A stretch of 44,514 nucleotides of DNA from a virus. The notes below the pieces were generated by a model. It saw only the letters and a list, made by a program, of their open reading frames with translations, made no database searches and was not told the origin of the DNA. The stretch lies in the UHGV virus genome UHGV-1355725. One strand, given 5' to 3'. Every line of letters starts with the position of its first letter. Positions within the stretch are counted from its first letter, which is position 1. Below, piece after piece: positions 1 to 44,514 of this stretch. The position numbers were made by a program, and so were the translations under genes.

Positions 1-654
1 TTTGCGAATAGTTTTGTTTTTCTGGTATGAGGTTCCTATGAAGCCGGTTAAGAAATTATCTCCCCCTTCTAACGTAGCGAAGGATGGGAGGATAAAAGAA
101 TCGGCACTGGATACGGAGTCAATAACTTTTGCGGAGCCTAAAGCCAGATTAGCCGAAATAGAACTCGCGGTAGCCGATAACCTCAGGGTGTCTAGCGACT
201 CCTGAACGTTTAAACCCGAAGTAGTGTTGATAATCGACGCGCCTTTGTTTACGTCAGAACTAGCCAAGTCCGCGCGTAAATATGGGTCAGTCCGCGGTTT
301 CCAGTAAGCATTACCCACGGGGTTAAAGGATGCGGGGACGACAACAGGAAGATTACCTGCGTATGAGTACCAAGTCTGACTAACAGGGTCGTAAACAACT
401 TTGTCACGGTCATTAACAGTTAACGTTCCGCCAGTGGAGAAGTCCCAAGACACCGGAGAAAAACCTGCGTCACGCAACACGGCGGGTAGCGTCTTTTGAG
501 TCTGTCCGGTAACCGGGTTAGTTGCGTAATCAATATCAGCACCCCCAGCAATCCCACCAGATTTACCGGTGATGACCTCAGCTTCGAAAATCTGGTGTTT
601 CTTGGCGGTCTGTAAATCCGCCAGGCTTAAAACGTCACCGCATCCGCTTGACAT
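1..654 (-). CDS. tailspike/tail fibre, N-terminal part (3' end cut by window start)
   Basis: ATG at 654 (minus); open to position 1 with a complete codon at 3..1; translation MSSGCGDVLSLADLQTAKKHQIF... Same codon phase as the ORF open to the right window edge (43366..44514). Confidence 0.55.
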   Translation of the reverse strand, partial: MSSGCGDVLSLADLQTAKKHQIFEAEVITGKSGGIAGGADIDYATNPVTGQTQKTLPAVLRDAGFSPVSWDFSTGGTLTVNDRDKVVYDPVSQTWYSYAGNLPVVVPASFNPVGNAYWKPRTDPYLRADLASSDVNKGASIINTTSGLNVQESLDTLRLSATASSISANLALGSAKVIDSVSSADSFILPSFATLEGGDNFLTGFIGTSYQKNKTIRK

Positions 655-666
655 ATAGAGTCCTCT

Positions 667-3162
667 TTAATTAAAGCCATTGCTGAATCCGTCGGAGAAA
701 CCGCTGCCGTATGGCGCGACGCCGTCGTATTTGTAGAAATCCGCCTCATAATTAATCCCGGTAATCTTAACTGTTCTGTCATCCCCGGGGTCAACTGTAG
801 AAACAAGAATCATCTGAGCATTATGCCTTGCTTCGTTGCCAAATGAAAACTCAGTTTTTAGGGCGCTATTCCCTGTGTAAATTGCCTCCTGCGGCGCGGA
901 TAGCATAATCACTTCACGGTCATGACCCCCTGGAACAACAGCAACACTCTGGACACCGCCGTCGCGCTTCTTAAGGATAAGAGAGTGGTCATCACCAGGA
1001 GTGAATGTGACAGGCTGCGATAAAGTCAGGGCAAGACCATTAACAGCAACAACATAGCCGTCTTGGGGTGCAATACGTGAACCTTTAACTACACTTATTG
1101 CCCGTCCTGGAAGCACAAAAACACCTTCTTCTGTTGCCGTGAAAGACACAGTTACTTTTTTCAACAAGTTCTTTTGATACCGTCGGTACGCGGCCCAATA
1201 TGCCTGTCGATAGTTACGGATACCTTTAGAGTCATACGTTTCGGTATTAATTCCTCCTTCGGCCGGGATGCTAATAGTCTCTTTTACGTTCGTATCCGGG
1301 TCGATATAAGAGAACTTAAGACTATCGTATACCTGAGCGTCGTTAAATGTCCTGGTCCACTTCTCGGATGCCGTTGTTTTGCTACGGTGGGTGAATACCA
1401 TCTCCGGCCCCATGCGAGGGCGCTCGAAATCCAGTAATATGTCCTGCCCTTTACGATACGGCGTACAGAAAATAGCGTCGGCTATGGTGCTGATTATGTC
1501 CTGCATAGTCGTTTTGTAGTCATCGAACGTGTAGCAGAATTGCCCTGCCTCCGCGTTCCCAAAATAACCTTCAATCTCTGCCTGCGTAGCCAGCAACTTA
1601 TCCATGTTAGCTGTGGTGAGATTGAGATTACCTACTACCGGGTCGCGGGCGAGACGGATTAATGACTGAACGGCCTGGGTATTAGGCGTCATTACAGTGT
1701 CGAACACACCGTTACCGAGGTATTTGTAGACCATCTCCGTAGCGACCATTCGCAGTTGTGGTTGTTTAATCTCCGCCGCCCGCGGCGTCTGCTTACGCGC
1801 GGAGTGTACGGTAGTACGATTGCCGTAATGCGGCGTAGTGTCGCGAACCTGCCCGTAAAGGTTGATGTAGGAAACCTCGTCTACCACTGTACCGCCAAAG
1901 TCAAAATCAAAGTTACTAACCCTGCGACAGCGCACCCTAACCCTGGATTCAATTGGAAGGTCAGCGTACACAGTGGCACCCGTGTAATCGCTAGTACGAC
2001 CTGAAATAGTTCCCTGTTTATTGTATACAGGACCATAAGGAACTCCGTCATCTCCTATTAATTGGTACTGAACTTCAACGGTTACAGAGGTCCCCTGTTT
2101 ATTGCCGTCGTCTTTATACATGCCATTTGCCGCGGCGAAGTTTGCCACGACGCGCCCAACCTTTATTCTGTTAAGAGAGACCCAATCTGTTAGGCTAGCG
2201 TCATATGTGCCGGTAGGCCCTATGGTCGCGGCTTTATCCTGCGTTACATAGCCTTCACGCACTCCTCCCCCCTGATCTGGTAGAGTCTGCCACTCAGATA
2301 GTTTTGGGGAAGCATTTACCGTTATCTGGAATTCGTCCACACTTAATACGGAGTATACCCCGTCTAAATTACCACCGCCTTCCGGCCGTATCCATGTAAA
2401 TGTAGCTTGGTCTCCCGGGGCAATGTAGGTATTGAATGCCGAGTCTCCCGTTGGGTCGGTTATTGTCCCTGCGGTCCCGACAAGACGCGCGCGGGCCGAG
2501 CTGCCCACGTTGTTAGCGAGGTCATTTGGTGCTTTTAAAACAGCTCCGTCTACTTCATTGGACGCTATAGTTATGAATAACCCCTGGTTTATGGGGTCGC
2601 CGACCAACAACTGCGGGGCATTCGTGTTGTTGGGTGAAGTGAAAGGCGCGTACACAGCAACGGAGGTCCCGGTAATCTCCTGTACTTTAGTGTCCCCGTC
2701 GGTAATATCTTCTGCTTTAATATCAAGGTAACCGCGACCAGCATCATAGTATCCGTACTCAATAACACGACCGGCGGTATTAAATACCTTATACGTGGTC
2801 ATGAGGTCATTAGGGATAGTCTGGACCCTGCCGCAAATATCATACGACCGTTCATACGGACGCGATTTATTATTTCGGTCTGTCAGGCTGTTGTTGGGTG
2901 ACTCCGCTTGCTGGTTAGCAAGACTTGTTTTTGGTGTTTTCTGTGACGGTGAAATCAGCTTAGTAACAAACTTAAGTACACCTAACGGGTCGAGCAGTTT
3001 ACCCAGAAAACCGCCGCCACCCCCGGCACCCTCAATGATGTGGAATACATCGTCTTCTTTCAGCGCTTCGAAGTTTTCTGTAACTTCTGTATCTTCGCCG
3101 ATTTCACCTCGATAGATGCGAACGGGTACGCCGTCCGGGATGTTAGTGACGACGTATTCCAT
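667..3162 (-). CDS. large distal tail protein (tail tip / central fibre, J-like)
   Basis: 831-aa ORF from ATG at 3162 (MEYVVTNIPDG...); last large gene of the tail module before the tailspike; Gly-rich segment GAGGGGGF. Function is positional inference. Confidence 0.45.
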   Translation of the reverse strand: MEYVVTNIPDGVPVRIYRGEIGEDTEVTENFEALKEDDVFHIIEGAGGGGGFLGKLLDPLGVLKFVTKLISPSQKTPKTSLANQQAESPNNSLTDRNNKSRPYERSYDICGRVQTIPNDLMTTYKVFNTAGRVIEYGYYDAGRGYLDIKAEDITDGDTKVQEITGTSVAVYAPFTSPNNTNAPQLLVGDPINQGLFITIASNEVDGAVLKAPNDLANNVGSSARARLVGTAGTITDPTGDSAFNTYIAPGDQATFTWIRPEGGGNLDGVYSVLSVDEFQITVNASPKLSEWQTLPDQGGGVREGYVTQDKAATIGPTGTYDASLTDWVSLNRIKVGRVVANFAAANGMYKDDGNKQGTSVTVEVQYQLIGDDGVPYGPVYNKQGTISGRTSDYTGATVYADLPIESRVRVRCRRVSNFDFDFGGTVVDEVSYINLYGQVRDTTPHYGNRTTVHSARKQTPRAAEIKQPQLRMVATEMVYKYLGNGVFDTVMTPNTQAVQSLIRLARDPVVGNLNLTTANMDKLLATQAEIEGYFGNAEAGQFCYTFDDYKTTMQDIISTIADAIFCTPYRKGQDILLDFERPRMGPEMVFTHRSKTTASEKWTRTFNDAQVYDSLKFSYIDPDTNVKETISIPAEGGINTETYDSKGIRNYRQAYWAAYRRYQKNLLKKVTVSFTATEEGVFVLPGRAISVVKGSRIAPQDGYVVAVNGLALTLSQPVTFTPGDDHSLILKKRDGGVQSVAVVPGGHDREVIMLSAPQEAIYTGNSALKTEFSFGNEARHNAQMILVSTVDPGDDRTVKITGINYEADFYKYDGVAPYGSGFSDGFSNGFN

Positions 3163-3224
3163 AGGACTACTCGTGTGACGTTTACGGTCGAAGGTTCCGT
3201 CTTCGTTACGGGTGTAATGTAGTA

Positions 3225-3590
3225 TTAGCGCCAAAATTCTATCTCCGCATAAGTGTCTCGCAAGTCTTCCAGACGGTCTAATCTGACCTGACGGCTTGCG
3301 AGTTCGCAATGACTAACCATTCCGTCATAATATACGCCAGCGTGCCAGATTACACGGTTTCTGTGCCGCGCTGCCATCAGAACGGCATCGAAGTTTTGCG
3401 GAGTTTCAACACGTACAAGGCCTTTAGTGTCTTTATGGCCTTCTTCAAAGGCCGCATTAATCTGTGTTGGTGAGGCAACATTAAACTCCGGCGTGTCCAA
3501 ACCGGCGTCTGCGCGAACATTGCGGACATGGTGCCAGCAATTATGGCGGCGAAAGTCGTAAGGCAGACCCGTGTAGGTGTTAATTTTCAT
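3225..3590 (-). CDS. minor tail / tail assembly protein
   Basis: 121-aa ORF in the tail-tip cluster; Cys/His-containing motif RHNCWHH; overlaps neighbours by 4 nt (operon coupling). Confidence 0.35.
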   Translation of the reverse strand: MKINTYTGLPYDFRRHNCWHHVRNVRADAGLDTPEFNVASPTQINAAFEEGHKDTKGLVRVETPQNFDAVLMAARHRNRVIWHAGVYYDGMVSHCELASRQVRLDRLEDLRDTYAEIEFWR

Positions 3591-4102
3591 GTTGATAAAA
3601 TCCCACGCAATAGGGGTATTACTAAAGGCGTCATAAGTTCGCCTGTCGCCCTCTGATTGAGCATTGGTGCGCCGACGTCCGCCGTGAATATACCTTTTTC
3701 CTGGTTAATTGACTGTAACTCGTACACAACAGGCCCATCAGCAGGATAAGACAAATCAGTACTAACAAAACGGCGGAATATGAATTTAGGTAGCACGGTA
3801 TTATCGGGCGGTATCCTGTCCATCTCATCGTCTAACTGGTTACCAATGTCAGGCAATGCGAACGACGCCCGCTGGTCCATGTCGTTATTGTTGGCGGCCC
3901 CTTTAGCCTCCATAGGTGTAGCCTCAAACGTTACGACTTCTCCTGTCTCTAGCGTTGCCGTCAGGTCGGAAGTCCCTCGCACAAGATAGTACGTCTTCGA
4001 CAGCAACGGGTGGCTGATTTGCAACGTGATGTAGTCCATCTCGCCGTCTGGGTTTGAGGCCAGCTTACGGCGGTAGGCTGCTTCTACTGATTCCCGACTC
4101 AT
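3587..4102 (-). CDS. minor tail protein
   Basis: 171-aa ORF in the tail-tip cluster downstream of the tape measure gene. Confidence 0.35.
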   Translation of the reverse strand: MSRESVEAAYRRKLASNPDGEMDYITLQISHPLLSKTYYLVRGTSDLTATLETGEVVTFEATPMEAKGAANNNDMDQRASFALPDIGNQLDDEMDRIPPDNTVLPKFIFRRFVSTDLSYPADGPVVYELQSINQEKGIFTADVGAPMLNQRATGELMTPLVIPLLRGILST

Positions 4103-4105
4103 AAG

Positions 4106-5500
4106 TTAACCGTCCACATTAAAATCAATACGAGTGATATATTTACTACCCCACGCCGAATCCGCTTGGGGTATGGAGGCGTAACCGTCAACAGACGGAA
4201 CGTTTACCACAGTGCCGTCGGAATAGGTAATGTCGATGCTTGTTGCGCCGTTCATTGTTACTTTTGCTGATGCCGTCGTTCGGGTTACTGGCGACGCCTC
4301 AGTTACTACCGGCGACGTAGACAGGCCCAAGGAGTCACTTTGCGGTGTGCAAACGAGAACTCCGTTGGCCCCATCACCAGCAAATGTGGTTAAGTTTGAA
4401 TCGTTATGGACCCAAATCTGCATAGTAATGGCGCTGTATCCCCCTGCCGGGGCTGTTACTATTTCTGAGAAACGGAACCAACCACCCCCAAGATTTTCTA
4501 TAGAAGAGTTGGCGCTGCCGCCGATAATAACTCCGCTAAGCAGGTTTACGGTAACATCCGCTACAAATACCGCGTTATTGGCGATTCGTATACGGATATT
4601 GCGATACCCGTCCGCCTTAGCTATAACACTGAATGTACATACTCCCCCTTCAAGAATCTCAAACACCGGAGACTGTCCGACTAAGTGAGTGCCGTTATCT
4701 GTCGTTGGGGTTAGTTTAAAACAACCATTAACCAGCATTCCGGTTTGCGGTGATGGGGTTATTGACATGCGTGTAGTGGCCCACGCCACGTCCGCCAGAT
4801 TAGTGTTATGTAGTATGACGTTCTTAGATGTATATTCCGGTGGTACACGACCCGCAGCAACCCCATCAATAAACGTAAGGGGCCATTCATTTACGGCAGA
4901 CTGCACAAGACCGCCGTTTCGGTTGATGTAGTAAACCTGCGGCCCATCGTAAACAATGCGGCTATCCAGCGTGGACGCCAAAAGGTTAATCGGCGGGTGT
5001 CCTGCAGGCCCTTCATCGCTCCAGATGCGCGGGAACGTCGTCTCGTAGTTCGCATATATTTTCAGGAAACTACCCAAACCGTCTCCGTAACAACCGAACA
5101 AATCGGGAAGATTCTTGGTAAGACAAGTGTCTTCCTGAATTGCTGTGCGCTCTGCGGTAGCGGTGAACGTAATTACCCAGTTCTTGCCGTCGTCGGTGCT
5201 GTCGCTAATGTCAGACGTAATAAGCACCTGGTGGTCTTCGATACCTAACCCGGTGTCGTGCGGCATGATAAAAGACGATGCGCCGCCGTCTATGTTATTC
5301 AGGAAGCTATAGAAAGCCTGACGGCCTAGCGACGATACGACCAAGGTAACGCTAATTGGCACCGGTTCAAAGTATGTATCACGCCCCTGGCGTGGCACGC
5401 CGCCCTGAACTTCTGTACGCCAGATATTACTCCCTCGCATTTGGGAGTACCCCTTCGACACTATAGGCCGAAGGGACATAGGGAATCTCAAAGAAGACAT
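4106..5500 (-). CDS. minor/distal tail protein
   Basis: 464-aa ORF, ATG at 5500, immediately downstream of the tape measure gene (stop 5504). Confidence 0.4.
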   Translation of the reverse strand: MSSLRFPMSLRPIVSKGYSQMRGSNIWRTEVQGGVPRQGRDTYFEPVPISVTLVVSSLGRQAFYSFLNNIDGGASSFIMPHDTGLGIEDHQVLITSDISDSTDDGKNWVITFTATAERTAIQEDTCLTKNLPDLFGCYGDGLGSFLKIYANYETTFPRIWSDEGPAGHPPINLLASTLDSRIVYDGPQVYYINRNGGLVQSAVNEWPLTFIDGVAAGRVPPEYTSKNVILHNTNLADVAWATTRMSITPSPQTGMLVNGCFKLTPTTDNGTHLVGQSPVFEILEGGVCTFSVIAKADGYRNIRIRIANNAVFVADVTVNLLSGVIIGGSANSSIENLGGGWFRFSEIVTAPAGGYSAITMQIWVHNDSNLTTFAGDGANGVLVCTPQSDSLGLSTSPVVTEASPVTRTTASAKVTMNGATSIDITYSDGTVVNVPSVDGYASIPQADSAWGSKYITRIDFNVDG

Positions 5501-5503
5501 AGT

Positions 5504-7774
5504 TTAGTACCCCGGCTGGTTTCGTGTAGCTCGGCGTGACTTGGAGATTGCGCTGTTGCTGTCCTGCAACGCCGCCGATACTGTTTCGCTGATGATAACA
5601 CGTAACCGCCCTTCGTCGTCACGTTCTGTTACGGCGGAATCAACACGTCCGGTGGTGTTGTTAACAATTGTCACGCTGTCACCGCCTGACTTGTTGCCGT
5701 TCTCCCCCATAATCTGGCGCATCTGTTCGGCGGTACGGACGCGTGACGCCCCCGCTGGCATAATAACTTCAGGCTTGTTACGTTCCGCGATGGTAGATAG
5801 CTGGCCAGCTGCCAAGTTACCGCCCTGCTCACGCGCTGAGCGAATCTTTCCTATGTTCGCGAGACCTGCTGCTACGGCTGCTGCCGCTGCCACAGGGCCG
5901 AGTACCCAACCAACAATAGGAATCGCGGACGCGGATTTATAAGCCTCGATGGCAGAGGTGTATGTGGCGATGGTGGCCTGGGCGATAGCAAACGCTTTGT
6001 ACGCGGAGGATGCTTCTCCAAGCGAAGATTTAATATTGTCCGCCATCATACCGAAGGCGTTACCTGTAGCATTGGCACGCTTCAAAGCATACTGGTCATT
6101 TATGGCGTTAACCGCAGCCTGGTACTGTTCCTCGTTAATAAGATTCTGTTCACGGTATCGGTCAGCAACGTCCAGTTTTTGTTGTTCCTGAATTTCCAGA
6201 AGCTCAAGCTCAGTAGCGTTCTGGCCCATAATCTGAGCCATGAAGTCGTCACCTTTCTGCTGTTTTTCTTGGGCTTCTTTCTGGCGTTTATCCAGTTCAT
6301 CTTGTCGTTTTTGCCCTGCTTCGAGGACAATAGCCGTTTTTGCTTGCTCATATTCTTTCAGTGACAGCGCGCCCTGGCTGTAGAACTCTTTTGCCTTAGC
6401 CAGTTTCTGCTGTTCCTGCGCGTCAATAGCCTTTAACTCGTCGTTGTTCTGGCGGGCCAAAGTGTCGAGGTAATCTTGCGCCTGATTCCGCAATTGTTCC
6501 GCTTTCTTGGCGGCGGCTTTTGCCGCTTTATCGTCAGCGTTTCCGGTGCCGCCAGTTCCACCCTTTTTATTAACAAGGCTGGCTAAGTCAATTTCTTGCT
6601 TCTTGCGCTCGTCGTACTGCTTGCGCTGTTCCTCAATTTCTTTCTTACGCTGCTTAGACCTGTCTGTAATGGCCCGCGATTCAGCCTCTGCACGTTTTAT
6701 ACTGGCGGCGTATGCGGCGTCGGCCTCTGCGGTCAGGTTTTTAAAGGTGAGCGCTGCCGTTTTGCTCGGGTCAAACACGTCGGCAAGGGTCTGGCCTAAC
6801 GCTACTGCGTAATCGTCAATGCGCTGGAACCACGCAATAACCTCGTGGAATGTCTGCTGGATGTCAGGCAACCACTCACGTATGGCATCAGGTATAGCCC
6901 CCAGCGAATCTGACATATCCGCGGATTTGTCCTCGGTGTCGTATGCTAGGTCGTTCAAGGCATCGGAAATAAACTTGAACGACTCGTTGAACAGCGTCGC
7001 CCAGTCCTGGAGTGTGGCGGCTATCTCATTAGATGCGATGGCGTCGGTAAGCGCCGTTACAGCGTCTTCCGCCATCGCTGCTTGCTCACCCACGGCGTCA
7101 CCAAAACCGGATTGAGCTACCGCAAGAACAAGACCATCGAAGGAGTCGGCGAGGCTCGACAACTGACCATCTAAGGTCTTAGAGCGCGTCTCCATCGCCC
7201 CGGCGAAATCAGTGTTACCGATGTTTAACAGGTATTTCTGAATCTCTTCGGAGTTCTTTTTAACGGTGGTGGTAACCCCTCGGAACGTAAACGAAACTGT
7301 ATCCGCCTGTTGCGAAGACTTGATGCCAAACTCTTTCAGTCGTTCAAACTCAAATGTACTGGCGTCGGCAACTGCCTCAATCATCTGATTAAGGTCTTTA
7401 CCCATAGCCGCCGCGGTGTTGCCGTAGGAGATTAACGCCTCTTTGCTGGGGTTCAGGCCGAGGGCTACAAGTTTAGTGAAGCCCTCGACCGCCTGATTGA
7501 GACCGTACGGAGTTTCTTTTGCGAACTGTTGCAGTACGCTGAAAGCCTTAGCCGCGTTCTCTGCGCTTCCGGTCATTGTGATGAGGCCGGAATTCAGCTT
7601 ATCGAAGTTGCGCTGAGAGTCCACCAGCGCGCTGAACACCTGCTTAGCGGTTTCCAGACTGACAACGGCAGCGGCAGCAGCCCCCGCCGCCTTAGTAAGC
7701 CCGTTCAGTTGGGATGTGGTTTTATCGACGCCGGTCGATGATACTCGTACTATCAAGCTAGCGGTATCAGCCAT
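5504..7774 (-). CDS. tail tape measure protein
   Basis: About 756 aa from ATG at 7774 (MADTASLIV...); Ala/Gln/Lys/Glu-rich coiled-coil stretch (EIEEQRKQYDERKKQ...); directly downstream of the G/GT chaperone pair. Confidence 0.8.
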   Translation of the reverse strand: MADTASLIVRVSSTGVDKTTSQLNGLTKAAGAAAAAVVSLETAKQVFSALVDSQRNFDKLNSGLITMTGSAENAAKAFSVLQQFAKETPYGLNQAVEGFTKLVALGLNPSKEALISYGNTAAAMGKDLNQMIEAVADASTFEFERLKEFGIKSSQQADTVSFTFRGVTTTVKKNSEEIQKYLLNIGNTDFAGAMETRSKTLDGQLSSLADSFDGLVLAVAQSGFGDAVGEQAAMAEDAVTALTDAIASNEIAATLQDWATLFNESFKFISDALNDLAYDTEDKSADMSDSLGAIPDAIREWLPDIQQTFHEVIAWFQRIDDYAVALGQTLADVFDPSKTAALTFKNLTAEADAAYAASIKRAEAESRAITDRSKQRKKEIEEQRKQYDERKKQEIDLASLVNKKGGTGGTGNADDKAAKAAAKKAEQLRNQAQDYLDTLARQNNDELKAIDAQEQQKLAKAKEFYSQGALSLKEYEQAKTAIVLEAGQKRQDELDKRQKEAQEKQQKGDDFMAQIMGQNATELELLEIQEQQKLDVADRYREQNLINEEQYQAAVNAINDQYALKRANATGNAFGMMADNIKSSLGEASSAYKAFAIAQATIATYTSAIEAYKSASAIPIVGWVLGPVAAAAAVAAGLANIGKIRSAREQGGNLAAGQLSTIAERNKPEVIMPAGASRVRTAEQMRQIMGENGNKSGGDSVTIVNNTTGRVDSAVTERDDEGRLRVIISETVSAALQDSNSAISKSRRATRNQPGY

Positions 7775-8548
7775 GATTTCTACCTTCAAAGATTGCTTCT
7801 AAGCCCATGATAACGTCTATCTCGAACAGGCTAAGCTGTTTTTGCGTAACATCGAGATAGGCTTTCAGGTCTTGCCACGTAACGGATTCTCTTGCAAACA
7901 ATACTACAGCGTCCTCGCGCACGTGTCGCGTAAACTTAATGTCACAGTACGTCTCAAAGGTGGATATAAAAAGGGGCGGGCATTCGGGCCCACCCCGTCG
8001 CGCTGCACGTTTTTTCTTATCGATTACACCCATCGCGATAAGCGCCTGTTCGTGTCCGTCGGCTATAGAATCAAACTCTCTGATTTTATGCTTATCCACA
8101 AACTCGTAGGTGGCGAACCTGTACAGCGCGTCTACTTTTCCTGTAATGCTTTGCGCTCGGCGTTATGGAACGCAGCTACCTGTGTACCCAATGCCTTGAA
8201 CTGATCCAGCAATTTGCTAAATGCTTCTTTAGAGAAAGGCTCATCAAAGCTCCAGCCGTTTACGACTTCTGCCGCGAGTTGTCGGTTGAGGTCTTCCGCC
8301 AGTTCGTTAATAGCCAGGTTATATTCAGTATAGTCGCCGGATTCTTTGGCGGCTTTTTCCAGTTCTTCGAAACGCGCCAACCCGCGACGGTACGCAATAA
8401 TGAAAGCACGCCCCGCTTTAACGGCGACATCCGCATCGGGACTTACAACGTTAAGCCATTCACCGGAGTCTTCGCCGTTTGGCAGCAGAATGGGCATCTT
8501 CTTGCCTACCAGTGCTTTCTCTTCGAAATAAAAATCAGAAAGTTTCAT
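7767..8548 (-). CDS. tail assembly chaperone GT fusion (predicted -1 frameshift product)
   Basis: The -1 frame relative to G opens at 8162 and runs to 7767, overlapping the tape measure start; G ends ...CAG GAA AAG TAG with the A-rich run GGAAAAG (8135-8141) as candidate slip site. Confidence 0.5.
8132..8548 (-). CDS. tail assembly chaperone (G-like)
   Basis: 138-aa acidic ORF, ATG 8548 with RBS AAAGGA; sits immediately upstream of the tape measure gene; the -1 frame is open across its last codons. Confidence 0.6.
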   Translation of the reverse strand: MKLSDFYFEEKALVGKKMPILLPNGEDSGEWLNVVSPDADVAVKAGRAFIIAYRRGLARFEELEKAAKESGDYTEYNLAINELAEDLNRQLAAEVVNGWSFDEPFSKEAFSKLLDQFKALGTQVAAFHNAERKALQEK

Positions 8549-34516: not shown

Positions 34517-34558
34517 CCATCTGGCGGCCTTCGGGCCGCTTTAACTGAGGGCAAAGAA

Positions 34559-34768: not shown

Positions 34769-35037
34769 TTTACCAACTCTACCGCGCTGTAGACAGGCGG
34801 GATAACACGGAGGCGCTATGGCTGTTGCGTGCGCCGTCCGGTGCGCACCAGATGGAGGAGATGGCGTACTTAGGCAAAGCGCCACGGCCTAAAGATATAG
34901 GCCGTCATGTTTCGCAGATTAAGCGCACGACTTTCGCCAAGCCCGACTTTTATGTCTTCGAGTCTATGTATGGGTGGGCCATGCACTGCGATCATAAGAC
35001 CAGGCATTTAATTGACCAGTGGGAGAACGGGGTATGA
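34765..35037 (+). CDS. hypothetical protein
   Basis: 90-aa ORF overlapping its neighbours. Confidence 0.4.
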   Translation: MIYQLYRAVDRRDNTEALWLLRAPSGAHQMEEMAYLGKAPRPKDIGRHVSQIKRTTFAKPDFYVFESMYGWAMHCDHKTRHLIDQWENGV

Positions 35038-35291
35038 ATTGGATTAGCGTAAACGAAGAATTACCAGAGTCAAAAGATGATTCTGTTTTAGTTTGCTCAG
35101 TAGATGGCAGTAAATATGACGATAACGGATTCCCGGAAGGTGGAGTTGATTTTGTACATATACAGGACTATTTCGACGACATTACTGCTTGGTTGGATGA
35201 AAACGGAAATCAGTTATATACGAAACGGTATGTAGAGATGGGTATAACGCACTGGATGTATTTACCGGAACTACCAGAGGACGTTAAATAA
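35034..35291 (+). CDS. DUF551-like phage protein
   Basis: MNWISVNEELPES...W...YLPELPE pattern; ATG overlaps the upstream stop. Confidence 0.45.
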   Translation: MNWISVNEELPESKDDSVLVCSVDGSKYDDNGFPEGGVDFVHIQDYFDDITAWLDENGNQLYTKRYVEMGITHWMYLPELPEDVK

Positions 35292-36541: not shown

Positions 36542-36545
36542 AGTG

Positions 36546-36574
36546 TTGACACCTGAATAGTTAGCTATTATAGT
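36546..36574 (+). promoter_or_regulatory. class-2 promoter with embedded inverted-repeat operator
   Basis: TTGACA (36546-36551), 17-bp spacer, TATAGT (36569-36574); inverted repeat AATAG-TTAG-CTATT 36556-36569, identical core to the copy at 34004. Confidence 0.55.
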
Positions 36575-36628
36575 TCTAATCACTGGCCGGGCAGCTTCCC
36601 GGAGTAAACTGAAAAGCGAGAAACTAAG

Positions 36629-37255
36629 ATGGGTATTAAACTGAATCTGCGTAAAGTAAACACTGCATGGGTTAACGTATTCGAACGCGAAAAAGACCGT
36701 GAAAACGATGATGGCTCAATCACTAAAGGCCAGTACAGCGCGACTATCATCCTGCCGTCTGACCATGCTCAAATCGACGCGCTCTACGATACCGTTTACG
36801 CTGTAGTTGAAGAAGCGTTGGGCGCAGCCGCCGCCGAGAAGTGGATGAAGTCCAACTACGGCGAAGGTAAGCACATGGATAAATGCGCTATTAAAGACAT
36901 CGCCGAACGCGACAATCCTTTTGAAGACTTCCCGGAAGGCTTTTACTTCAAAGCGAAGGCACAGAAACAGCCACTGATTGTAACCTCTAAAAAAGGTGAG
37001 ACTCAGGTAGAGCAGGACTTCAACGTAGACGGAGAACAGATTGAAGGTGAACAGGTTTACAGTGGCTGCGTCGCTAACGTAAGCGTCGAAATCTGGTTCA
37101 GCCAGAAATATAAAGTTCTCGGTGTTAACCTGCTGGCGATTAAATACGTTGGTGAGGGTAAAGCGTTCGGTGGTTCTAAAGTCGCTGCAAGTGTCAATGA
37201 CCTGGAAGACGACGAAGAAGATGAAGCACCGCGCCGCGAACGTCGCCGCCGTTAA
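36629..37255 (+). CDS. ssDNA-binding protein (T7 gp2.5-like)
   Basis: 208 aa; overall resemblance to gp2.5-type SSB with acidic C-terminal region DLEDDEEDE; sits between exonuclease and polymerase. Confidence 0.5.
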   Translation: MGIKLNLRKVNTAWVNVFEREKDRENDDGSITKGQYSATIILPSDHAQIDALYDTVYAVVEEALGAAAAEKWMKSNYGEGKHMDKCAIKDIAERDNPFEDFPEGFYFKAKAQKQPLIVTSKKGETQVEQDFNVDGEQIEGEQVYSGCVANVSVEIWFSQKYKVLGVNLLAIKYVGEGKAFGGSKVAASVNDLEDDEEDEAPRRERRRR

Positions 37256-37272
37256 TATCTGAATCAATTTAA

Positions 37273-37298
37273 CTAAGGCCCTTCATTGGGCCTTTTTA
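37273..37298 (+). terminator. rho-independent terminator
   Basis: Hairpin AAGGCCC-ttcatt-GGGCCTT followed by TTTT. Confidence 0.5.
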
Positions 37299-37466
37299 CT
37301 AAGGGTCGAAAATCATGTTTTTCTGTAAGCACGTATACCGATATATGAAACCGCTTCCGTGGTACGCGGATGAGTACCGCGCCGGGTACAGGCATGTGTG
37401 GATTTGCCGTGATTGTATGAAAATAAGACTCAGCGAAACGAAGGCAATGGATTTAAGGAAAAAGAA

Positions 37467-40400
37467 ATGAGCTACTTATACCTGGACTTTGAAACATTCT
37501 CCGAAGCCGATTTAAAGAAAGTCGGCTCCTACGCTTACGCCGAACACCCGTCAACCGAAGTTCTTATCTGTACATACGCTTTTGACGACGAGCCTGTACA
37601 GGTATGGGACTGCACAGACGGCAGCGACATGCCTGGGGATTTGCACCGCGCACTACGCCGTCTGGTGAAACCAAACAGCCGCATTAAGATGGTGTGGCAT
37701 AACGGCTCAATGTTCGATCGCCTCATCATGAAACACTGCTGGGGCTTTGATATTCCGGTAAGTAACACCATTGATACGATGATTTGGGCGTTTCGTCACG
37801 CGCTGCCGGGTTCACTTGACGCATTGTGTGAAGTGCTGGGCGTGTCCGCAGATAACGCGAAAGACAAACGTGGCAAGGCGCTGATTCAGCGTTTCTCTAA
37901 ACCTACACCGAAGAACTACAAAATCCGCCGCTACACCGCCGAAACACACCCGGACGAGTGGGCGCTGTTCATCAAGTACGCCGTGAGTGACATCACTGCG
38001 ATGCGCGAAGTATTCCATAAGCTGCCTCGTTGGGGTAACTCAGAGTTTGAAGACCGTGTACTGGAACTGGACCAGTTAATTAACGACCGCGGGTTTAAGG
38101 TTGACGTCGCACTGGCGGAAGCCGCGATCGAAGCCGTGGAGAAGCACAAGACACAGTTACAGGAAGAAGCCCAACGCAAATACGGCGGCTCGCTTACTGG
38201 TAAAGACTTCCTCCCTATTCTGCGTGAACTCGCCCCAGCGCACCGCATCCACAATGCGCAGAAGTCTACGCTGAATGACCTGCTGGCAGACGACGATTTA
38301 CCGGACGACGCCCGCGCGATTATAGAAATGCGCCTCGGGGCCGCGTCCACCGCGTCAACGAAATATAACCCATTGCTATTAGGCCGCTCATCGGACGACC
38401 GTCGCCGCGGTTGTTTACAGTACGGCGGGGCAAAACGTACCCTGCGATGGGCGGGTAAAGGCTTCCAGCCGCAGAACCTGGCGCGCGGTTACTATCACGA
38501 TGATGAACTGGATAAAGGCATTTCTGCGCTACTTAAGGGCCGTGCGCATCGCCGTTTTGATGTAGCCAAGCTAACGGCATCGACGGTGCGTAGCTGCATC
38601 ATACCGGAAGCCGGATATAAGTTTGTCGTCGCCGATTACTCTAACGTTGAAGGCCGCGGGCTTGCGTGGCTGGCGGGCGAAGAAACCGCGCTTGATACGT
38701 TCCGCGCCGGACTGGATATTTACTGTGTAACCGCAGGTAAGATGTTCGGCATGGACCCCGACGATATTAAGAAAGAACGTAAAGACTTGCGCCAGATTGG
38801 TAAAGCGTGCCTTCACCGTCATACCCTAGTTTTGACCGATGGCGGATTTAAGGATATTATGGCGGTTACATCAACAGATAAAGTATGGAGCGGTGAAAAA
38901 TGGGTGAATACAAAAGGCGCGCACCTTATGGGGTGGAAACCGGTAATAAATGTGGACGGGGTGCTAATGACCGAAGACCACAAAATCTTGGCGCATTCCT
39001 GGAAGCAGGCAAAGCAACTCGCTTCAAACAGATATATGATGGGCCTCGCCCTGGAGAGAGGTATGGACGCCTGGTTATCCTGCGCGAGTTACCAAAACGA
39101 CAAGGCCAAAGACAACTACTCGTCCAATGTGATTGCGGAGAGATGCCGTGGCGGGTCTATTACGACAATGTCAGAGCGGGTAAAACCACTCAATGCAACC
39201 GCTGCGCCCTTGAAGCAACAAAAAAATATCGTAAACAGTATTTCTGCTACGAAGACGCAATGCCGGATGATGCGCACAGAACAAGATTACTCAACCGGCT
39301 GTCCGCGGCGATCACGCGAACAACAAGCCCCAGGAATAAGGGTTATAAAAACTATGGTGCCAGGGGCATCACGGTATTCGACCAGTGGAGGACTGATAAA
39401 AGGTCGTTTCTTGGATATGTTCAAACTCTGGAAGGCTGGGACGACCCAAACCTCGAAATGGATAGAATCGACACAGACGGTAACTACGAACCTGGAAACA
39501 TTCGGTTTGTCAGCCGTTCTGAAAACTGCCGAAACAGACGGCAAATACCCGAGCTTCAACGAAAGTATGATGCAGCCGTTGCCCGCATTGCTGAACTTGA
39601 ACGGGAAATTAGCCTATTGCGAGCCGGTGTACGACCTGATTGATGTGGAAGACGGCAACCGTTTTCTTATAGCCTCAGACTCTGGCTTTCTTGTGGCGCA
39701 TAACTGCGAGCTTGGCCTCGGCTATGAGGGGGGTGTCGGTGCTTTCGTTACGTTTGCTAAAAACTTAGGTCTTGACCTTATCGAGATGGCAAAAACAATG
39801 GACGGTACTTTCCCGGGCCACATATGGGCAGCTACCGCACGCGGTTATGAGTGGGCGCGTATCCAGGAAGCAAAGCGACCGCCGCAGCCCGGCGAAAAGG
39901 ACGACCGACCGTCGTATATTTTGGACAAGAAAGTGTGGCGCACATGCGACGCGATCAAGCGTATGTGGCGCGAGTCACACCCGGAAACAGTAGCGTTCTG
40001 GCGCGACCTTAAAGACGGAATTTTAGCCGCTGTGCGTAATCCAGGTCGTGAATTTTGGGCGGGGGCACACTTGCGCAGGAATGGGGAAAGGGCAATCCGC
40101 ATATGGCGTACTGTAGAATTTGATTCATCCGGTAGGAAGGTTCCTGGTTGGTGGTTATGCATGGAGTTGCCGTCAGGCCGCATCCTCTCGTATCCGGGAA
40201 TCGGCGTTAGTGTGACAAAGGAAACAGACGAAGACGGACGGGTAAACACGAATGTGCGAATCAAGTATCAGGGGGAAAACCAGTTAACCCGCCAATGGAC
40301 CACCCTGTACACACACGGCGGCAAGGCCTGCGAAAACATTGTTCAGGCGCTGTGCCGCGATTTACTTGCCTATGCGATGATTAACGTTGAGGGTGGTGGG

Positions 40401-40565
40401 TATCCCATCGTGCTTTCTGTACACGATGAATTGGTATGCGAAACTCCAGATACGCAGGAATACAACGTGGCTGAACTGGAAAAATTAATGTGCGCGTTGC
40501 CGGAATGGGCAGAAGGCTTCCCTCTTGTAGCGGAAGGTGCGGAGATGAAGCGTTATGCTAAGTAA
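37467..40565 (+). CDS. family A DNA polymerase with 3'-5' exonuclease domain, interrupted by an intein
   Basis: Exo motif YLDFETFS, motif A VVADYSNVEGRGLAWL, motif C VLSVHDELV; ATG 37467 with RBS AAGGAA; a 299-aa insertion splits motif B (RQIGKA / CELGLGYEGG). Confidence 0.85.
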   Translation: MSYLYLDFETFSEADLKKVGSYAYAEHPSTEVLICTYAFDDEPVQVWDCTDGSDMPGDLHRALRRLVKPNSRIKMVWHNGSMFDRLIMKHCWGFDIPVSNTIDTMIWAFRHALPGSLDALCEVLGVSADNAKDKRGKALIQRFSKPTPKNYKIRRYTAETHPDEWALFIKYAVSDITAMREVFHKLPRWGNSEFEDRVLELDQLINDRGFKVDVALAEAAIEAVEKHKTQLQEEAQRKYGGSLTGKDFLPILRELAPAHRIHNAQKSTLNDLLADDDLPDDARAIIEMRLGAASTASTKYNPLLLGRSSDDRRRGCLQYGGAKRTLRWAGKGFQPQNLARGYYHDDELDKGISALLKGRAHRRFDVAKLTASTVRSCIIPEAGYKFVVADYSNVEGRGLAWLAGEETALDTFRAGLDIYCVTAGKMFGMDPDDIKKERKDLRQIGKACLHRHTLVLTDGGFKDIMAVTSTDKVWSGEKWVNTKGAHLMGWKPVINVDGVLMTEDHKILAHSWKQAKQLASNRYMMGLALERGMDAWLSCASYQNDKAKDNYSSNVIAERCRGGSITTMSERVKPLNATAAPLKQQKNIVNSISATKTQCRMMRTEQDYSTGCPRRSREQQAPGIRVIKTMVPGASRYSTSGGLIKGRFLDMFKLWKAGTTQTSKWIESTQTVTTNLETFGLSAVLKTAETDGKYPSFNESMMQPLPALLNLNGKLAYCEPVYDLIDVEDGNRFLIASDSGFLVAHNCELGLGYEGGVGAFVTFAKNLGLDLIEMAKTMDGTFPGHIWAATARGYEWARIQEAKRPPQPGEKDDRPSYILDKKVWRTCDAIKRMWRESHPETVAFWRDLKDGILAAVRNPGREFWAGAHLRRNGERAIRIWRTVEFDSSGRKVPGWWLCMELPSGRILSYPGIGVSVTKETDEDGRVNTNVRIKYQGENQLTRQWTTLYTHGGKACENIVQALCRDLLAYAMINVEGGGYPIVLSVHDELVCETPDTQEYNVAELEKLMCALPEWAEGFPLVAEGAEMKRYAK
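38808..39704 (+). mobile_element. intein in the DNA polymerase
   Basis: Begins CLHRHTLVLTDGG, block-B-like GVLMTEDHKILAHSW, ends VYDLIDVEDGNRFLIASDSGFLVAHN followed by extein Cys; the central part of the host frame is open but compositionally non-protein-like. Confidence 0.65.
38900..39643 (+). CDS. HNH-family endonuclease encoded in an alternative frame inside the polymerase intein
   Basis: Codon phase offset by one nucleotide from the polymerase; motifs RYGRLVILREL, CDCGEMPWRVYYDNVRAGKTTQCNRC, YKNYGARGITV, IDTDGNYEPGNIRFVSRSENCRNR; ATG 38900 preceded by GGAG/GGTGA; exact start uncertain. Confidence 0.6.
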   Translation: MGEYKRRAPYGVETGNKCGRGANDRRPQNLGAFLEAGKATRFKQIYDGPRPGERYGRLVILRELPKRQGQRQLLVQCDCGEMPWRVYYDNVRAGKTTQCNRCALEATKKYRKQYFCYEDAMPDDAHRTRLLNRLSAAITRTTSPRNKGYKNYGARGITVFDQWRTDKRSFLGYVQTLEGWDDPNLEMDRIDTDGNYEPGNIRFVSRSENCRNRRQIPELQRKYDAAVARIAELEREISLLRAGVRPD

Positions 40566-41408: not shown

Positions 41409-41600
41409 ATGAAACACGAATATGACCGCAAACCAGCACGTGACATTGTACCGGGCGACATGATTTTCAACGTTAGGACCCGCCGCCCTGTTGCCGTTGA
41501 TACGGTGTTCGTCGAGTCGAACGGTAAACTGGTTATCGAAGACGTAACAGGAAACGTTACCGCGTTTGGGCGGAAGGAACTGGTACTGGTGGCGAAATGA
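41409..41600 (+). CDS. hypothetical protein
   Basis: 63-aa ORF; stop overlaps the helicase ATG. Confidence 0.4.
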   Translation: MKHEYDRKPARDIVPGDMIFNVRTRRPVAVDTVFVESNGKLVIEDVTGNVTAFGRKELVLVAK

Positions 41601-43021
41601 GTAAGTTTCAGAGGCGCGAATACCAGAAGCTCATGACTTCGTTCATGTTGCAACATCCGCGCTGTAATATTTGGGCTTCGATGGGCAGCGGCAAGTCGGG
41701 GTCAACGTTGTGGGTCCTCAACCGACTGTTCCGTAATGGGCAACTTAATGACGACGACCGAGTGTTAATTCTGGCCCCTTTACGTGTTGCGTCAGGTACG
41801 TGGCCAGCGGAACAGGCACGTTGGAACTTCCCATGCCTGAATGTCGTCGATGCGACAGGTTCAGAGAAGCGCCGCATCGCGGCGCTGGAGTCAGACGCTA
41901 ATGTGGTGTGCACCAACTACGAAGTTATCGAGTGGCTCATTGACTACTACGGCAAAGACGACTGGCCTTTCACGGTTATCGTTGCCGATGAAAGCACGAA
42001 GCTGAAATCATTCCGCAGCCGTTCGGGCGGAAGCAAAAGGGCGAAGGCACTTAGTAAAGTGGCGTTCGGTAAGGTTAAGCGTTTCATCAACCTGACCGGT
42101 ACGCCGTCGCCGAACGGACTAAAAGACTTATGGGGGCAGAACTGGTTTATCGACGCTGGCGAGCGCCTGGGGTCGTCGTACACGGCATTCACAGACCGCT
42201 GGTTTAACTCTGTGCAGAAAGGTAAGTCGGCGATGGCACGGGAGTACCACGCCCGCCCTGGTGCGGATAATGAAATTCACCAGAAGATGAAGGACATTAG
42301 TCTCACGATTGACGCCGCCGAGTGGTTCGGATGTGAAGCGCCGATTATTGTACCGGTTGAAATCGACCTGCCGAAGAAAGCGCGTCAGGTGTACATTGAT
42401 ATGGAGGAGAAGTTATTCGCTGAACTGGAAAGCGGGGAAGTTGAAGCGGCTAACGCGGCGGCGAAGACGTCGAAGTGTTTGCAGATTGCTTCCGGTGCCG
42501 TGTATGTATCGGGGCCAGACGGCGAAGCAACCAAAGACTGGGAGAAAGTGCATGACACGAAGCTGGACGCGATCGAGTCGATTGTGGAGGAGTTGCAGGG
42601 TGCGCCGTTGCTTGTGGCTTATCAGTTCAAGCACGAACTGGAGCGCATCCTTAAGCGATTCCCGCAGGCACAGGCGTTTGCCAAAGGCGCTAAGGGTAAT
42701 AAGCAGATGGAAGCGTGGAACCGCGGGGAAATCGATATTTTATGCGTGCATCCAGCGTCAGCCGGTCACGGCCTCAATTTACAGGACGGCGGGCATCATC
42801 TGGCATTCATCTCGCAAGGCTGGAACCTTGAGCACTATTTGCAGGTTGTCGAGCGTATAGGTCCGGTCCGCCAGAAACAGGCAGGCCACGAGCGCCCGGT
42901 GTTCCTCTACCACATCGTGGCTAAAGACACGCTGGACGAGGTTGTTGCCGCGCGTACGGACGAGAAGAAATCGGTGCAGGAAGAATTGCTTAATTATATG
43001 AAGAGACGAGGTAAGAAATGA
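41597..43021 (+). CDS. SNF2/DEAD-like superfamily 2 helicase
   Basis: 474 aa; motif I GSGKSGSTL, motif II VIVADESTKLK, C-terminal helicase motifs HPASAGHGLNLQ and QVVERIGPVRQ. Confidence 0.8.
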   Translation: MSKFQRREYQKLMTSFMLQHPRCNIWASMGSGKSGSTLWVLNRLFRNGQLNDDDRVLILAPLRVASGTWPAEQARWNFPCLNVVDATGSEKRRIAALESDANVVCTNYEVIEWLIDYYGKDDWPFTVIVADESTKLKSFRSRSGGSKRAKALSKVAFGKVKRFINLTGTPSPNGLKDLWGQNWFIDAGERLGSSYTAFTDRWFNSVQKGKSAMAREYHARPGADNEIHQKMKDISLTIDAAEWFGCEAPIIVPVEIDLPKKARQVYIDMEEKLFAELESGEVEAANAAAKTSKCLQIASGAVYVSGPDGEATKDWEKVHDTKLDAIESIVEELQGAPLLVAYQFKHELERILKRFPQAQAFAKGAKGNKQMEAWNRGEIDILCVHPASAGHGLNLQDGGHHLAFISQGWNLEHYLQVVERIGPVRQKQAGHERPVFLYHIVAKDTLDEVVAARTDEKKSVQEELLNYMKRRGKK

Positions 43022-43203
43022 AACTTAATGTTGGCGATGAAATATACAGCGTACATTCATTCAATATTTTCACCATAGAGTACATATCAAGAGACGGCAA
43101 CAGCTTTGTTTTGGTAAGCTCGGACGGTAAATACGAAAAATCACGGTGCTACACGCTGCCAGATATAAAGCGCAGTTTCAAGAAAAGCGAAGGTAAGAAA
43201 TGA
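43018..43203 (+). CDS. hypothetical protein
   Basis: 61-aa ORF overlapping the helicase stop. Confidence 0.4.
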   Translation: MKLNVGDEIYSVHSFNIFTIEYISRDGNSFVLVSSDGKYEKSRCYTLPDIKRSFKKSEGKK

Positions 43204-43337
43204 ACATCATAGCCCCGATTCCAGCATTGCAAAAACGTATCAAGGAACTCGAAGAAGAGGTTCTGCGACTACGGCAACAGAGAGACGCCGCTAATGCGCA
43301 ACTGGCATTTGTACTGGAGAAGTTATCAGAAGAGTAG
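43200..43337 (+). CDS. small coiled-coil protein
   Basis: 45-aa ORF (LQKRIKELEEEVLRLRQQRD). Confidence 0.3.
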   Translation: MNIIAPIPALQKRIKELEEEVLRLRQQRDAANAQLAFVLEKLSEE

Positions 43338-43339
43338 AG

Positions 43340-43368
43340 AAAAGGCCCCGTTTGGGGCCTTAGTTTTA
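43340..43368. terminator. bidirectional rho-independent terminator
   Basis: Hairpin AGGCCCC-gttt-GGGGCCT with flanking A/T runs; between the plus replication module and the minus tailspike gene. Confidence 0.6.
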
Positions 43369-44514
43369 CCAGCCAGTTATATTAACCGAGAAGGCAGTAT
43401 CCGTTGCTGTTTGGCTTGGGTTAAGGAATAATACCGTTAGTGTTGTTGTGTTGAAAACGCTCACCTGCGCAAACCCAAATGAGGATAAATGTTGGATTGA
43501 ATAACCCGCGGCTACTTCACTGGTGAAGTTAATAGTGTAAGAGCCGGTACTATTTTTAGTTACACTGTTAACGCCAAACCCGGAACTAACAGCGCCTGCG
43601 GCAGTAATGACAGCGGACACAATAGGCCTGAAATGTTGTACTGGAGTTACAACCCCAGCCGCGGTTACTTTGTAGGTGTACGTGATACCGCGCCGATGGT
43701 GGTATGTTACCGTAGAGCCAATGGCGGCTGCGGAAGCGATAACAATAGGCATTGCATTACCGTTTGAACCGAAACGCCCACCATTTATAGTGATATGAGA
43801 ATTAGCCCCATAAAGGTATATATCTCCGTTATACGTAATTCCTGGTATAACCTCGAACGAGTTTAGGGTTACCTGATTATTGCTGCCGAATGATATTAGC
43901 GCAGGTCCCTGGTCAGCTACCGGAAAACACGTGAAAGCGTTGACCACTATATTATGATTGTTATCTTTAAAAGCCAGAGCCGTTCCGGAATTAGCCGTGG
44001 TGGTGTTGGCCCCCTCACATCCGCAAGCGTCCAGCACAATCCCTTCGCAAGCGTCGAATGAGTAAGCAGTGTTAGTTGTATGGTCTGATGTACAACTAAT
44101 AAGCGTGGAATACTTCATACCTGTAAGGTCAAATGCGCCCGTTCTTGTAGTATCGGCAGAAGCCAACCCACATCCTGTTAGGACAACAGACGTACCGTTA
44201 TCAAGGCGAATCTTTCCGTTGTTGGAGAATACTCTGGAGATACGGCTTTGCCAGATATCTTTAGCCCATATCGCATAGGTACAGTTGATGAAATCTACAT
44301 TATCAATGTCAACTACGCCGCCTTGTAATACGAAAAAACCGGCCTGATTAGGGTTTGTATCGGAGTTACCCTCGACAGTAATATGCTTTAATGCAGATTT
44401 TTGGGGGAATACCTCGCCACTAGGCCATGCAGGGTCTTGATATACAACCGCATCCACAGTTTGACTCCCAGCGTTGGGGTCTTGGTTTGTTAGCGTAACA
44501 GTTGTATTACTTGA
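43366..44514 (-). CDS. tailspike/tail fibre, C-terminal receptor-binding part (5' end cut by window end)
   Basis: Frame open to the window edge; Asn/Thr/Gly-rich repeats suggestive of a beta-helix (NGTSVVLTGCG, HNIVVNAFTCF, ITYNGDIYLYGANSHITINGG); stop at 43366. Confidence 0.55.
   Translation of the reverse strand, partial: SSNTTVTLTNQDPNAGSQTVDAVVYQDPAWPSGEVFPQKSALKHITVEGNSDTNPNQAGFFVLQGGVVDIDNVDFINCTYAIWAKDIWQSRISRVFSNNGKIRLDNGTSVVLTGCGLASADTTRTGAFDLTGMKYSTLISCTSDHTTNTAYSFDACEGIVLDACGCEGANTTTANSGTALAFKDNNHNIVVNAFTCFPVADQGPALISFGSNNQVTLNSFEVIPGITYNGDIYLYGANSHITINGGRFGSNGNAMPIVIASAAAIGSTVTYHHRRGITYTYKVTAAGVVTPVQHFRPIVSAVITAAGAVSSGFGVNSVTKNSTGSYTINFTSEVAAGYSIQHLSSFGFAQVSVFNTTTLTVLFLNPSQTATDTAFSVNITGW

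Follow-up and report, generated by a model that had tools for sequence, protein, structure and literature searches.

The ends of the virus record UHGV-1355725, a DNA of 44,514 nucleotides that was analysed at its full length and is referred to here as the window, both fall inside open reading frames (ORFs) of the minus strand, and the question raised by this locus is whether the two frames are the halves of a single tailspike gene and what this would say about the genome and its ends. A first-pass annotation made from the letters had proposed that they are, and that the window is a complete, circularly permuted genome. Direct reading and a join in silico bear out, to the base, that the two end frames are open in matching codon phase. 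From an ATG at 652–654, a minus-strand frame runs stop-free to position 1 over 654 nt (218 codons, C-terminal ...KNKTIRK), and the minus-strand frame read from position 44514 continues for 382 codons (SSNTTVTL...) to a TAA at 43366–43368 (1149 nt). Both pieces are divisible by 3, and the joined coding sequence of 1803 nt specifies 600 residues and a stop (…TIRK/SSNTTV…, the slash marking the join), exactly the length that had been estimated as about 600. The remaining minus-strand frames at each end reach a stop after 1–18 codons, and none of the plus-strand frames at the two ends continues from one into the other. By exact comparison, no suffix of the window matches its prefix, as a terminal overlap or direct terminal repeat would, and the first 3 kb and last 3 kb share no 12-mer; the window retains neither an assembly overlap nor a terminal repeat. 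It should be recognized that agreement in phase is in itself weak evidence that the ends belong together, because two random cuts in a larger genome share strand and phase in about 1 in 6–8 cases, and a circle that is about 90% coding, when cut at random, nearly always gives the picture of a gene split in phase. The strong evidence for adjacency lies in the continuity of homology across the join rather than in phase.

A 2.1-kb artificial junction sequence was searched against 50,697 phage records and matched, in one piece, bas60_0027, a lateral tail fibre gene of the unrelated Escherichia phage PaulScherrer (Bas60), a 150-kb Justusliebigvirus. Realignment gave a single high-scoring segment pair (HSP) of 1308 bp with 86.6% identity and 0 gaps, covering window positions 43366–44514 and 1–159, and the bases at the join (…ATTACTTGA followed by TTTGCGAATAG…) are contiguous in PaulScherrer. 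A protein search found eight intact homologues of 600 residues with 91–99.8% identity at full coverage, carried on contigs of 41.7–44.3 kb; the closest (P0001) differs from the joined protein solely by D419N. In the Logan contig that carries this homologue (SRR18173670_4111; 41,294 bp), the tailspike gene is internal and is flanked by a J-like tail protein on one side and by two small ORFs and an SNF2 helicase on the other. When this contig is compared with a sequence made by joining the final 6 kb of the window to its initial 6 kb, a single HSP of 8,925 columns at 96.75% identity runs from window position 41597 through the junction to position 6000. Neither the PaulScherrer nor the contig alignment places any extra sequence between the two partial ORFs, which the first-pass annotation had named as a sign of a false join. 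These alignments show that positions 44514 and 1 are neighbours in a real molecule and that nothing has been lost or inserted between them. The gapless alignments across the junction, the intact homologues, and the collinearity with complete relatives described below all uphold the proposal of a single tailspike gene divided into the two partial ORFs.

Hundreds of records from Kagunavirus and Jerseyvirus are matched by both halves of the window, with coverage of 72–83% and identity of 88–90% for the best. Comparisons with three complete relatives, PV845598 (44,255 bp, a circular record), K1ind2 (NC_041898; 42,765 bp), and EM1 (PQ571293; 44,223 bp), each gave a single collinear series of blocks that goes once around the window and wraps at the arbitrary start of the relative's own record. 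In all three, the tailspike gene is in the middle of the record, with the J-like tail gene on one side and a helicase gene on the other; it has 1815 nt in PV845598 and in hz69, as compared with 1803 nt in the window. In a self-BLAST of the window, only two repeats were found, one direct (61 bp) and one inverted (35 bp), and there is no internal duplication of more than 61 bp. The once-around mapping and the lack of longer duplications therefore indicate that the window is exactly one genome unit; the view that every major module is present once is likewise supported by Pfam and PHROG family scans together with the self-BLAST. The start of the large terminase gene (window position 23560) is the record start in K1ind2 and many relatives, and by this comparison the window record is shown to be a rotation of the usual terminase-first layout.

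These results bear on two other interpretations of the record. If the window were a fragment of a larger replicon, either a prophage region or a larger phage, the match in strand and phase would be a coincidence of the kind expected in roughly 1 of 6–8 random windows, but this interpretation is refuted by the gapless homology over the join in two independent sources, by a size inside the 40.8–45.8-kb span of complete Kagunavirus genomes, and by a mapping that makes one circuit of each of three complete genomes without remainder; also, the scan of ORFs in the window showed neither an integrase nor bacterial flanks. It is exceedingly improbable, too, that the phage has a linear genome that starts and finishes inside the tailspike gene, with its physical ends where the window ends; nothing speaks for this beyond the fact that the record starts there. 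No known packaging mode places a fixed end within an essential structural gene while leaving no redundancy and an exact continuity of codons, and in relatives and independent contigs, which are linearised at many different points, the gene is intact.

Very probably, then, the window is the genome, at exactly one unit length (44,514 bp), of a virulent siphophage of E. coli that is Kagunavirus-like (Guernseyvirinae, Sarkviridae), the record being derived from a circular assembly that was opened at an arbitrary point, after codon 218 of the tailspike gene and before codon 219. Circular closure of the assembly would reflect headful packaging from concatemers, in which case the virion DNAs would be terminally redundant and circularly permuted, without fixed ends, and the ends of the window would not be physical ends. 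Given a real junction, headful packaging appears highly likely for this phage. Its large terminase belongs to the T4-like Terminase_6N/6C family of Pfam and is 99.5% identical to that of K1H and 99.0% identical to that of K1ind2; the terminases of K1G and K1H group with those of headful packagers in the Casjens-Gilcrease type tree of Baig et al. (PMC5582158). In the sister genus, Jerseyvirus, packaging is headful according to PhageTerm, a circular-type restriction profile, and a diffuse band in pulsed-field gel electrophoresis (PMC10783031), and a second report reached the same result by PhageTerm and described, for related phages, genes that span the contig ends once the assembler overlap has been trimmed from circularly permuted genomes (PMC9409062). 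In the Kagunavirus fBC-Eco01, no termini were found by PhageTerm (PMC9825357). The window phage resembles the headful phages P22, SPP1, T4, and P1 in having an assembly circle without fixed ends, a large terminase of the T4-like family, and headful signatures in its relatives, whereas terminally redundant, permuted virion DNA is a property of those phages that would be expected of this one.

Several points limit the case for headful packaging. Circular assemblies can be obtained, too, from phages whose DNA has cos ends or direct terminal repeats, and therefore closure alone is no proof of permutation. A sequence comparison of the large terminase with the Protein Data Bank (PDB) found no relative among solved structures, and the packaging class therefore rests on the published tree of a near-identical protein and on the data for relatives; the large terminases of Jerseyvirus are only about 54% identical to that of the window. 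No pac site was located. These points leave some room for a complete genome with a real junction whose virion ends are fixed elsewhere, as cos ends or short direct terminal repeats, the circle having arisen from collapsed repeats or from concatemeric or ligated reads. One Kagunavirus paper words packaging in cos terms, in generic text only (PMC9825357), and the termini of another Kagunavirus are given as 'not determined' (PMC13507304). However, fixed ends are an unlikely alternative, and hardly less so once the junction is accepted as real: the large terminase is T4-like and is not of the lambda GpA or T7 type, the near-identical K1H enzyme groups with those of headful phages, PhageTerm gave no termini for fBC-Eco01 while the Jerseyvirus relatives give headful signatures by three methods, and the window has no candidate repeat of at least 62 bp. 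The description of the window as a complete, circularly permuted genome is therefore supported, with a limit as to the virion DNA. Completeness and permutation at the level of the record are established by the alignments, the homologues, and the collinearity; permutation of the virion DNA, which a sequence cannot show, is inferred from the terminase and from the published data on relatives.

Kagunavirus records were also found to hold two very different types of large terminase. The type in the window is at least 98% identical to those of K1H, K1ind2, and SZH-1 and about 54% identical to those of LotteLoewe_Bas71 and all Jerseyvirus, and its nearest outside relatives are in Pseudoalteromonas phage H105/1 (58%) and Vibrio phages (56%). 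The presence of two types hints at a replacement of the packaging module within Kagunavirus.

The window phage is similar to members of Kagunavirus (K1G, K1H, K1ind2, EM1, vB_EcoS_GZMU_E2010, and SonjaBuckley Bas74) in genome size, in gene order, and in nucleotide sequence, with 84–94% identity over collinear blocks, and also in the location of the tailspike gene directly after the J-like fibre gene and in a tailspike with a conserved N terminus and a swapped receptor-binding part (PMC11990801). It differs in that the coverage of either half of the window by any one record of the phage collection is at most 83%, in a receptor-binding module unlike that of every listed Kagunavirus record, and in the presence of two inteins and extra HNH genes that K1ind2 does not have. 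Gene order and size agree with those of Kagunavirus and Guernseyvirinae (collinear with PV845598, NC_041898, and PQ571293; 44,514 bp as compared with 40.8–45.8 kb), and signature proteins are close to those of K1ind2, with identities of 77–98% for the DNA polymerase exteins and 91–94% for the head protein exteins. The ICTV demarcation lines are about 70% nucleotide similarity for the genus and 95% for the species. A crude product of identity and coverage against the best records is about 0.65–0.74, at the genus line, and similarity is clearly below 95% against every record. By these sequence comparisons, the window phage is probably a further member of Kagunavirus, and it falls below the species line against every deposited record searched; near-identical relatives are present in Sequence Read Archive assemblies.

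The identification of the joined product as a tailspike is sustained by PHROG, homologue, and fold matches, which carry out the comparison with tailspike families that the first-pass annotation had put forward as a check. An AlphaFold monomer model of the 600-residue protein, built on 40 homologues, has a mean predicted local distance difference test score (pLDDT) of 84.4; only residues 1–40 are unstructured, and almost all of the region from about residue 170 to 600 is β-strand. Foldseek gave 58 matches in the PDB at E ≤ 0.001, of which the top 30 or so are tailspikes or capsule depolymerases of phages, and a few β-helix proteins that are not from phages rank lower; the best include CBA120 TSP3 (2.6e-8), Sf6 (3e-8), AS12 gp42, HK620, and Det7. 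According to the model, the joined protein is a β-helix tailspike with a predicted right-handed parallel β-helix and a C-terminal β-sandwich. A search of the PDB by sequence gave a match at residues 52–181 only, to 9occ_G, a 'putative tail protein gp13', and it took the fold search to reveal the tailspike relatives. Codons 1–218, at window positions 1–654 (minus strand), are assigned from the translation and the PHROG tail-spike families; codons 219–600 and the stop codon, at 43366–44514 (minus strand), specify the predicted β-helix receptor-binding or depolymerase body and the β-sandwich, as indicated by the translation, AlphaFold, Foldseek, and the alignment with PaulScherrer. An SD-like sequence, AAAGAGGA, is located upstream of the ATG.

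The N-terminal part had been described as head-binding, and this is not upheld. PF09008, the P22 head-binding domain, gave no Pfam match in the protein even at E ≤ 0.1, and the label was rejected; PF18668 (TSP1/gp66 N-domain) gave a sub-threshold match of 20 bits as compared with a cut-off of 25 bits. PHROG tail-spike N-terminal families match residues 1–113/141 at E values of 1e-50 to 1e-34, and window positions 275–654, which encode this part, are conserved in Kagunavirus relatives while the rest of the gene is swapped. Residues 1 to about 127 constitute a Kagunavirus-type N-terminal anchor, followed from about residue 166 by an exchangeable receptor-binding module; the N terminus is a tail anchor, because this is a siphovirus with its tailspike gene directly after the J-like tail-tip gene. 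In the BASEL paper, Kagunavirus tailspikes are glycan-targeting enzymes whose gene directly follows that of the J-like central fibre (PMC11990801), an arrangement that is present in the window too. The C-terminal part, which had been called a repeat-rich receptor-binding part, is repetitive in the sense that it has β-helix rungs but not at the DNA level, since Tandem Repeats Finder reported nothing inside the tailspike gene. The tailspikes of P22, Sf6, HK620, CBA120 (TSP1–4), and Det7 similarly have a β-helix, a β-sandwich, and an exchangeable N-terminal module for binding to the particle (Foldseek E values of about 1e-8 to Sf6 and CBA120 TSP3), but the window protein differs from the P22 type in its Kagunavirus/Jersey-type anchor, without the P22 head-binding domain.

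The receptor-binding part (residues from about 166 to 600) is shared with PaulScherrer bas60_0027, with 86.6% identity in gapless DNA alignment and 80% protein identity over 90% of the query. PaulScherrer is a 150-kb myovirus and differs from the window phage in virion type and in N-terminal anchor, which is of the PF18668 type. The same module is located behind a PF18668 N terminus in PaulScherrer and its relatives P0010–P0012 and behind PF09008 in 586-residue podovirus-type proteins (P0019–P0026; 57–64% protein identity). By these sequence matches, the receptor-binding part is a shuttled module that is carried on three different anchors.

The genes that adjoin the two parts of the tailspike gene have the arrangement found in relatives. 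At one end, a gene for a J-like central tail fibre or tip attachment protein (667–3309, minus strand; Pfam FNIII-A_GpJ) is separated from the tailspike gene by a 12-nt gap, and homologous 'tail protein' genes adjoin the tailspike gene in hz69, GZMU_E2010, K1ind2, EM1, and L006/L007. At the other end, the plus strand has a gene for an SNF2-type DNA helicase (41597–43021; Pfam SNF2-rel_dom) and two small conserved ORFs (43018–43203 and 43200–43337; phrog_27617 and phrog_5915), which in L006 stand in identical order beside an intact tailspike gene. Between the TAG at 43335–43337 (plus strand) and the tailspike stop codon at 43366–43368 (minus strand), where the replication operon and the tailspike gene converge, direct reading of the sequence reveals a GC-rich hairpin, AAGGCCCC-GTTT-GGGGCCTT (43342–43361). 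To judge from its sequence and position, this is a likely bidirectional terminator; a simple promoter and terminator scan of the right end gave consensus-level matches only and did not list the hairpin.

The other modules are arranged as follows. The packaging genes (22310–24141, minus strand) encode the small terminase (23557–24141) and the large terminase (22310–23560), identified by Terminase_6N/6C, Terminase_3, phrog_3064, and phrog_2. The head and connector module (10947–22297, minus strand), identified by PHROG and Pfam matches and collinear with the annotation of K1ind2 and EM1, includes the portal (20822–22297), an intein-containing head morphogenesis protein (18468–20438), a Hoc-like decoration protein (18007–18468), spanins (16874–17369), scaffold (16090–16845), major capsid protein (15038–16087), adaptor (13900–14412), head closure and tail completion proteins (12532–13337), tail terminator (12119–12535), and a tube-like protein (10947–12122). 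Family scans placed the tail module at 3225–8548 (minus strand), with assembly chaperones (7767–8548), tape measure protein (5504–7789), distal tail protein (4106–5500), and minor tail proteins (3587–4102 and 3225–3590). The lysis cassette (26193–27229, minus strand) has two holins (26656–27229; phrog_2508) and an endolysin within the ORF at 26193–26729 (phrog_33703/phrog_7) and is collinear with the holin/holin/endolysin genes of K1ind2. The replication module on the plus strand (31298–40565), again from family scans, encodes a helicase-primase (31298–33565), a PD-(D/E)xK exonuclease (35291–36541), a Gp2.5-like ssDNA-binding protein (36629–37255), and a family A DNA polymerase with an intein (37467–40565).

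Two of these genes contain insertions that are in frame and flush in comparison with K1ind2, which does not have them. The insertion in the DNA polymerase gene (38808–39704, plus strand) encodes 299 residues (CLHRHTLV…TEDH…VAHN/C), and that in the gene for the MuF/SPP1-gp7-like head morphogenesis protein (18849–19742, minus strand) encodes 298 (CFTAETEL…TPKH…IVKN/C), where the slash precedes the first residue of the C-terminal extein. Both have the signatures of inteins, an N-terminal Cys, a block B TxxH motif, and a C-terminal Asn/Cys, and on these sequence signatures they qualify as putative inteins. It should be noted that the head-protein intein has a penultimate Lys in place of His and that Intein_splicing of Pfam is matched weakly, short of the cut-off (E 2e-4); two GenBank records annotate a 'minor head protein with inserted intein'. 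A family scan found no in-frame endonuclease domain in either intein. However, each is overlapped by an endonuclease ORF in another frame: inside the polymerase intein, an HNH endonuclease ORF is located on the same strand in a different frame (38900–39643, plus strand; phrog_374, E 2.9e-46), and antisense to the head intein is an ORF for a helix-turn-helix (HTH) and Vsr-like endonuclease (18789/18909–19676, plus strand; HTH_7, MTES_1575).

The polymerase-intein element is present in 163 phage records, from both Jerseyvirus and Kagunavirus, at about 96% identity and has never been annotated. In seven ungapped copies both frames are stop-free, and the possibility that the HNH frame is a frameshift error was ruled out, both frames being open in seven of seven independent copies without gaps. 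Among these copies, 27 of the 38 variable sites in the overlap region are at position 3 of the HNH codons, and the ratio of synonymous to non-synonymous substitutions is 30:9 in the HNH frame as compared with 7:32 in the intein frame; in the flanking exteins, variation is at position 3 of the polymerase frame and variability per site is 3–5-fold higher. As read from these substitution patterns, the hidden HNH gene is under purifying selection and the element has spread horizontally in recent times.

The head-protein intein is found in four phage records only. The likely start of the antisense ORF is a conserved Met codon at 18909, with AGAGGG upstream. Its three metagenomic homologues are diverged (55%, 44%, and 26% identity), and on two of the three homologue contigs the opposite strand is again stop-free, and conservation is higher in the antisense frame (54.5% and 46.9%) than in the intein frame (39.8% and 34.8%). 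In its model, the nuclease domain is similar to I-Bth0305I, to a DUF559 protein, and to Vsr, with scores that are weak but consistent. Two long open frames of 201 and 340 residues, antisense to the major capsid and scaffold genes (14996–16651, plus strand) and without PHROG matches, are probably a by-product of codon bias and were used as a negative control for the claims of overlapping ORFs. With a 340-residue antisense ORF present opposite capsid and scaffold genes and matching no family, length was rejected as evidence for overlapping ORFs, and the case therefore rests on homology and substitution patterns.

The balance of this evidence tips somewhat toward the view that the head-protein intein, which is contiguous, and its antisense HTH and Vsr-like/I-Bth0305I-type homing endonuclease form an antisense dual-coding unit, while the polymerase intein, with its same-strand, out-of-frame HNH partner, would be a widespread phage example of out-of-frame overlap (163 records). 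Out-of-frame endonucleases in inteins or insertions are known but rare, being described for a cyanobacterial dnaX intein (bioRxiv 10.64898/2026.09.14.751524) and the ShiLan element (PMC11855218); the window inteins are like these in having an endonuclease ORF that overlaps an in-frame, stop-free insertion and, for the HNH gene, in the purifying selection on the endonuclease frame. Free-standing Vsr-like endonucleases have been found between split-intein halves in the 'fractured genes' of phages (PMC2677866), a similar association of a Vsr-like/I-Bth0305I-type nuclease with a phage intein, but the inteins of fractured genes are split whereas those of the window are contiguous. The window elements differ also in having one endonuclease on the opposite strand and in their host genes, which encode a family A DNA polymerase and a MuF-like head protein. 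In the literature searched, no description was found of an antisense intein-endonuclease arrangement or of the endonuclease ORFs of these inteins.

Two further features are separate from the inteins. The 61-bp direct repeat has copies with 95% identity at 17678–17738 and 20441–20499 (plus strand), which contain TTTGCA...TATAAT and an AGGAGG-type ribosome-binding site and are located just upstream of small plus-strand ORFs (17745–17975 and 20507–20791, the latter phrog_1273) that are antisense within the minus-strand late operon. The copy at 20.4–20.8 kb lies within an insertion of about 340 nt that is absent from K1ind2 and PV845598. From their sequence, these loci look like moron-like promoter cassettes. 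At 10081–10781 (plus strand), a gene for an HNH endonuclease (phrog_99, E 1.8e-49) is followed by a 76-residue ORF that matches only the C-terminal third of an ATPase family, while the corresponding site in K1ind2 and EM1 has a polynucleotide kinase gene and an ATP-binding/dNMP kinase gene, which suggests a homing-endonuclease insertion with gene loss.

The split of the tailspike gene at the record ends is an ordinary bookkeeping effect of a kind that is already known. The window can be used as a complete genome, in which the tailspike should be annotated as one gene that spans the record origin; the apparent split would vanish if the record were re-oriented, as is conventional, to start at the terminase gene, and the case is a warning that record ends should not be read as physical ends. 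The tailspike itself illustrates how receptor-binding parts are commonly exchanged as modules between siphoviruses, myoviruses, and podoviruses, a point of relevance to the prediction of host range. The side observation on the inteins matters more than the joining of the ends: homing endonuclease genes overprinted on inteins, one of them antisense, are missed by standard annotation and bear on how endonucleases join and leave inteins.

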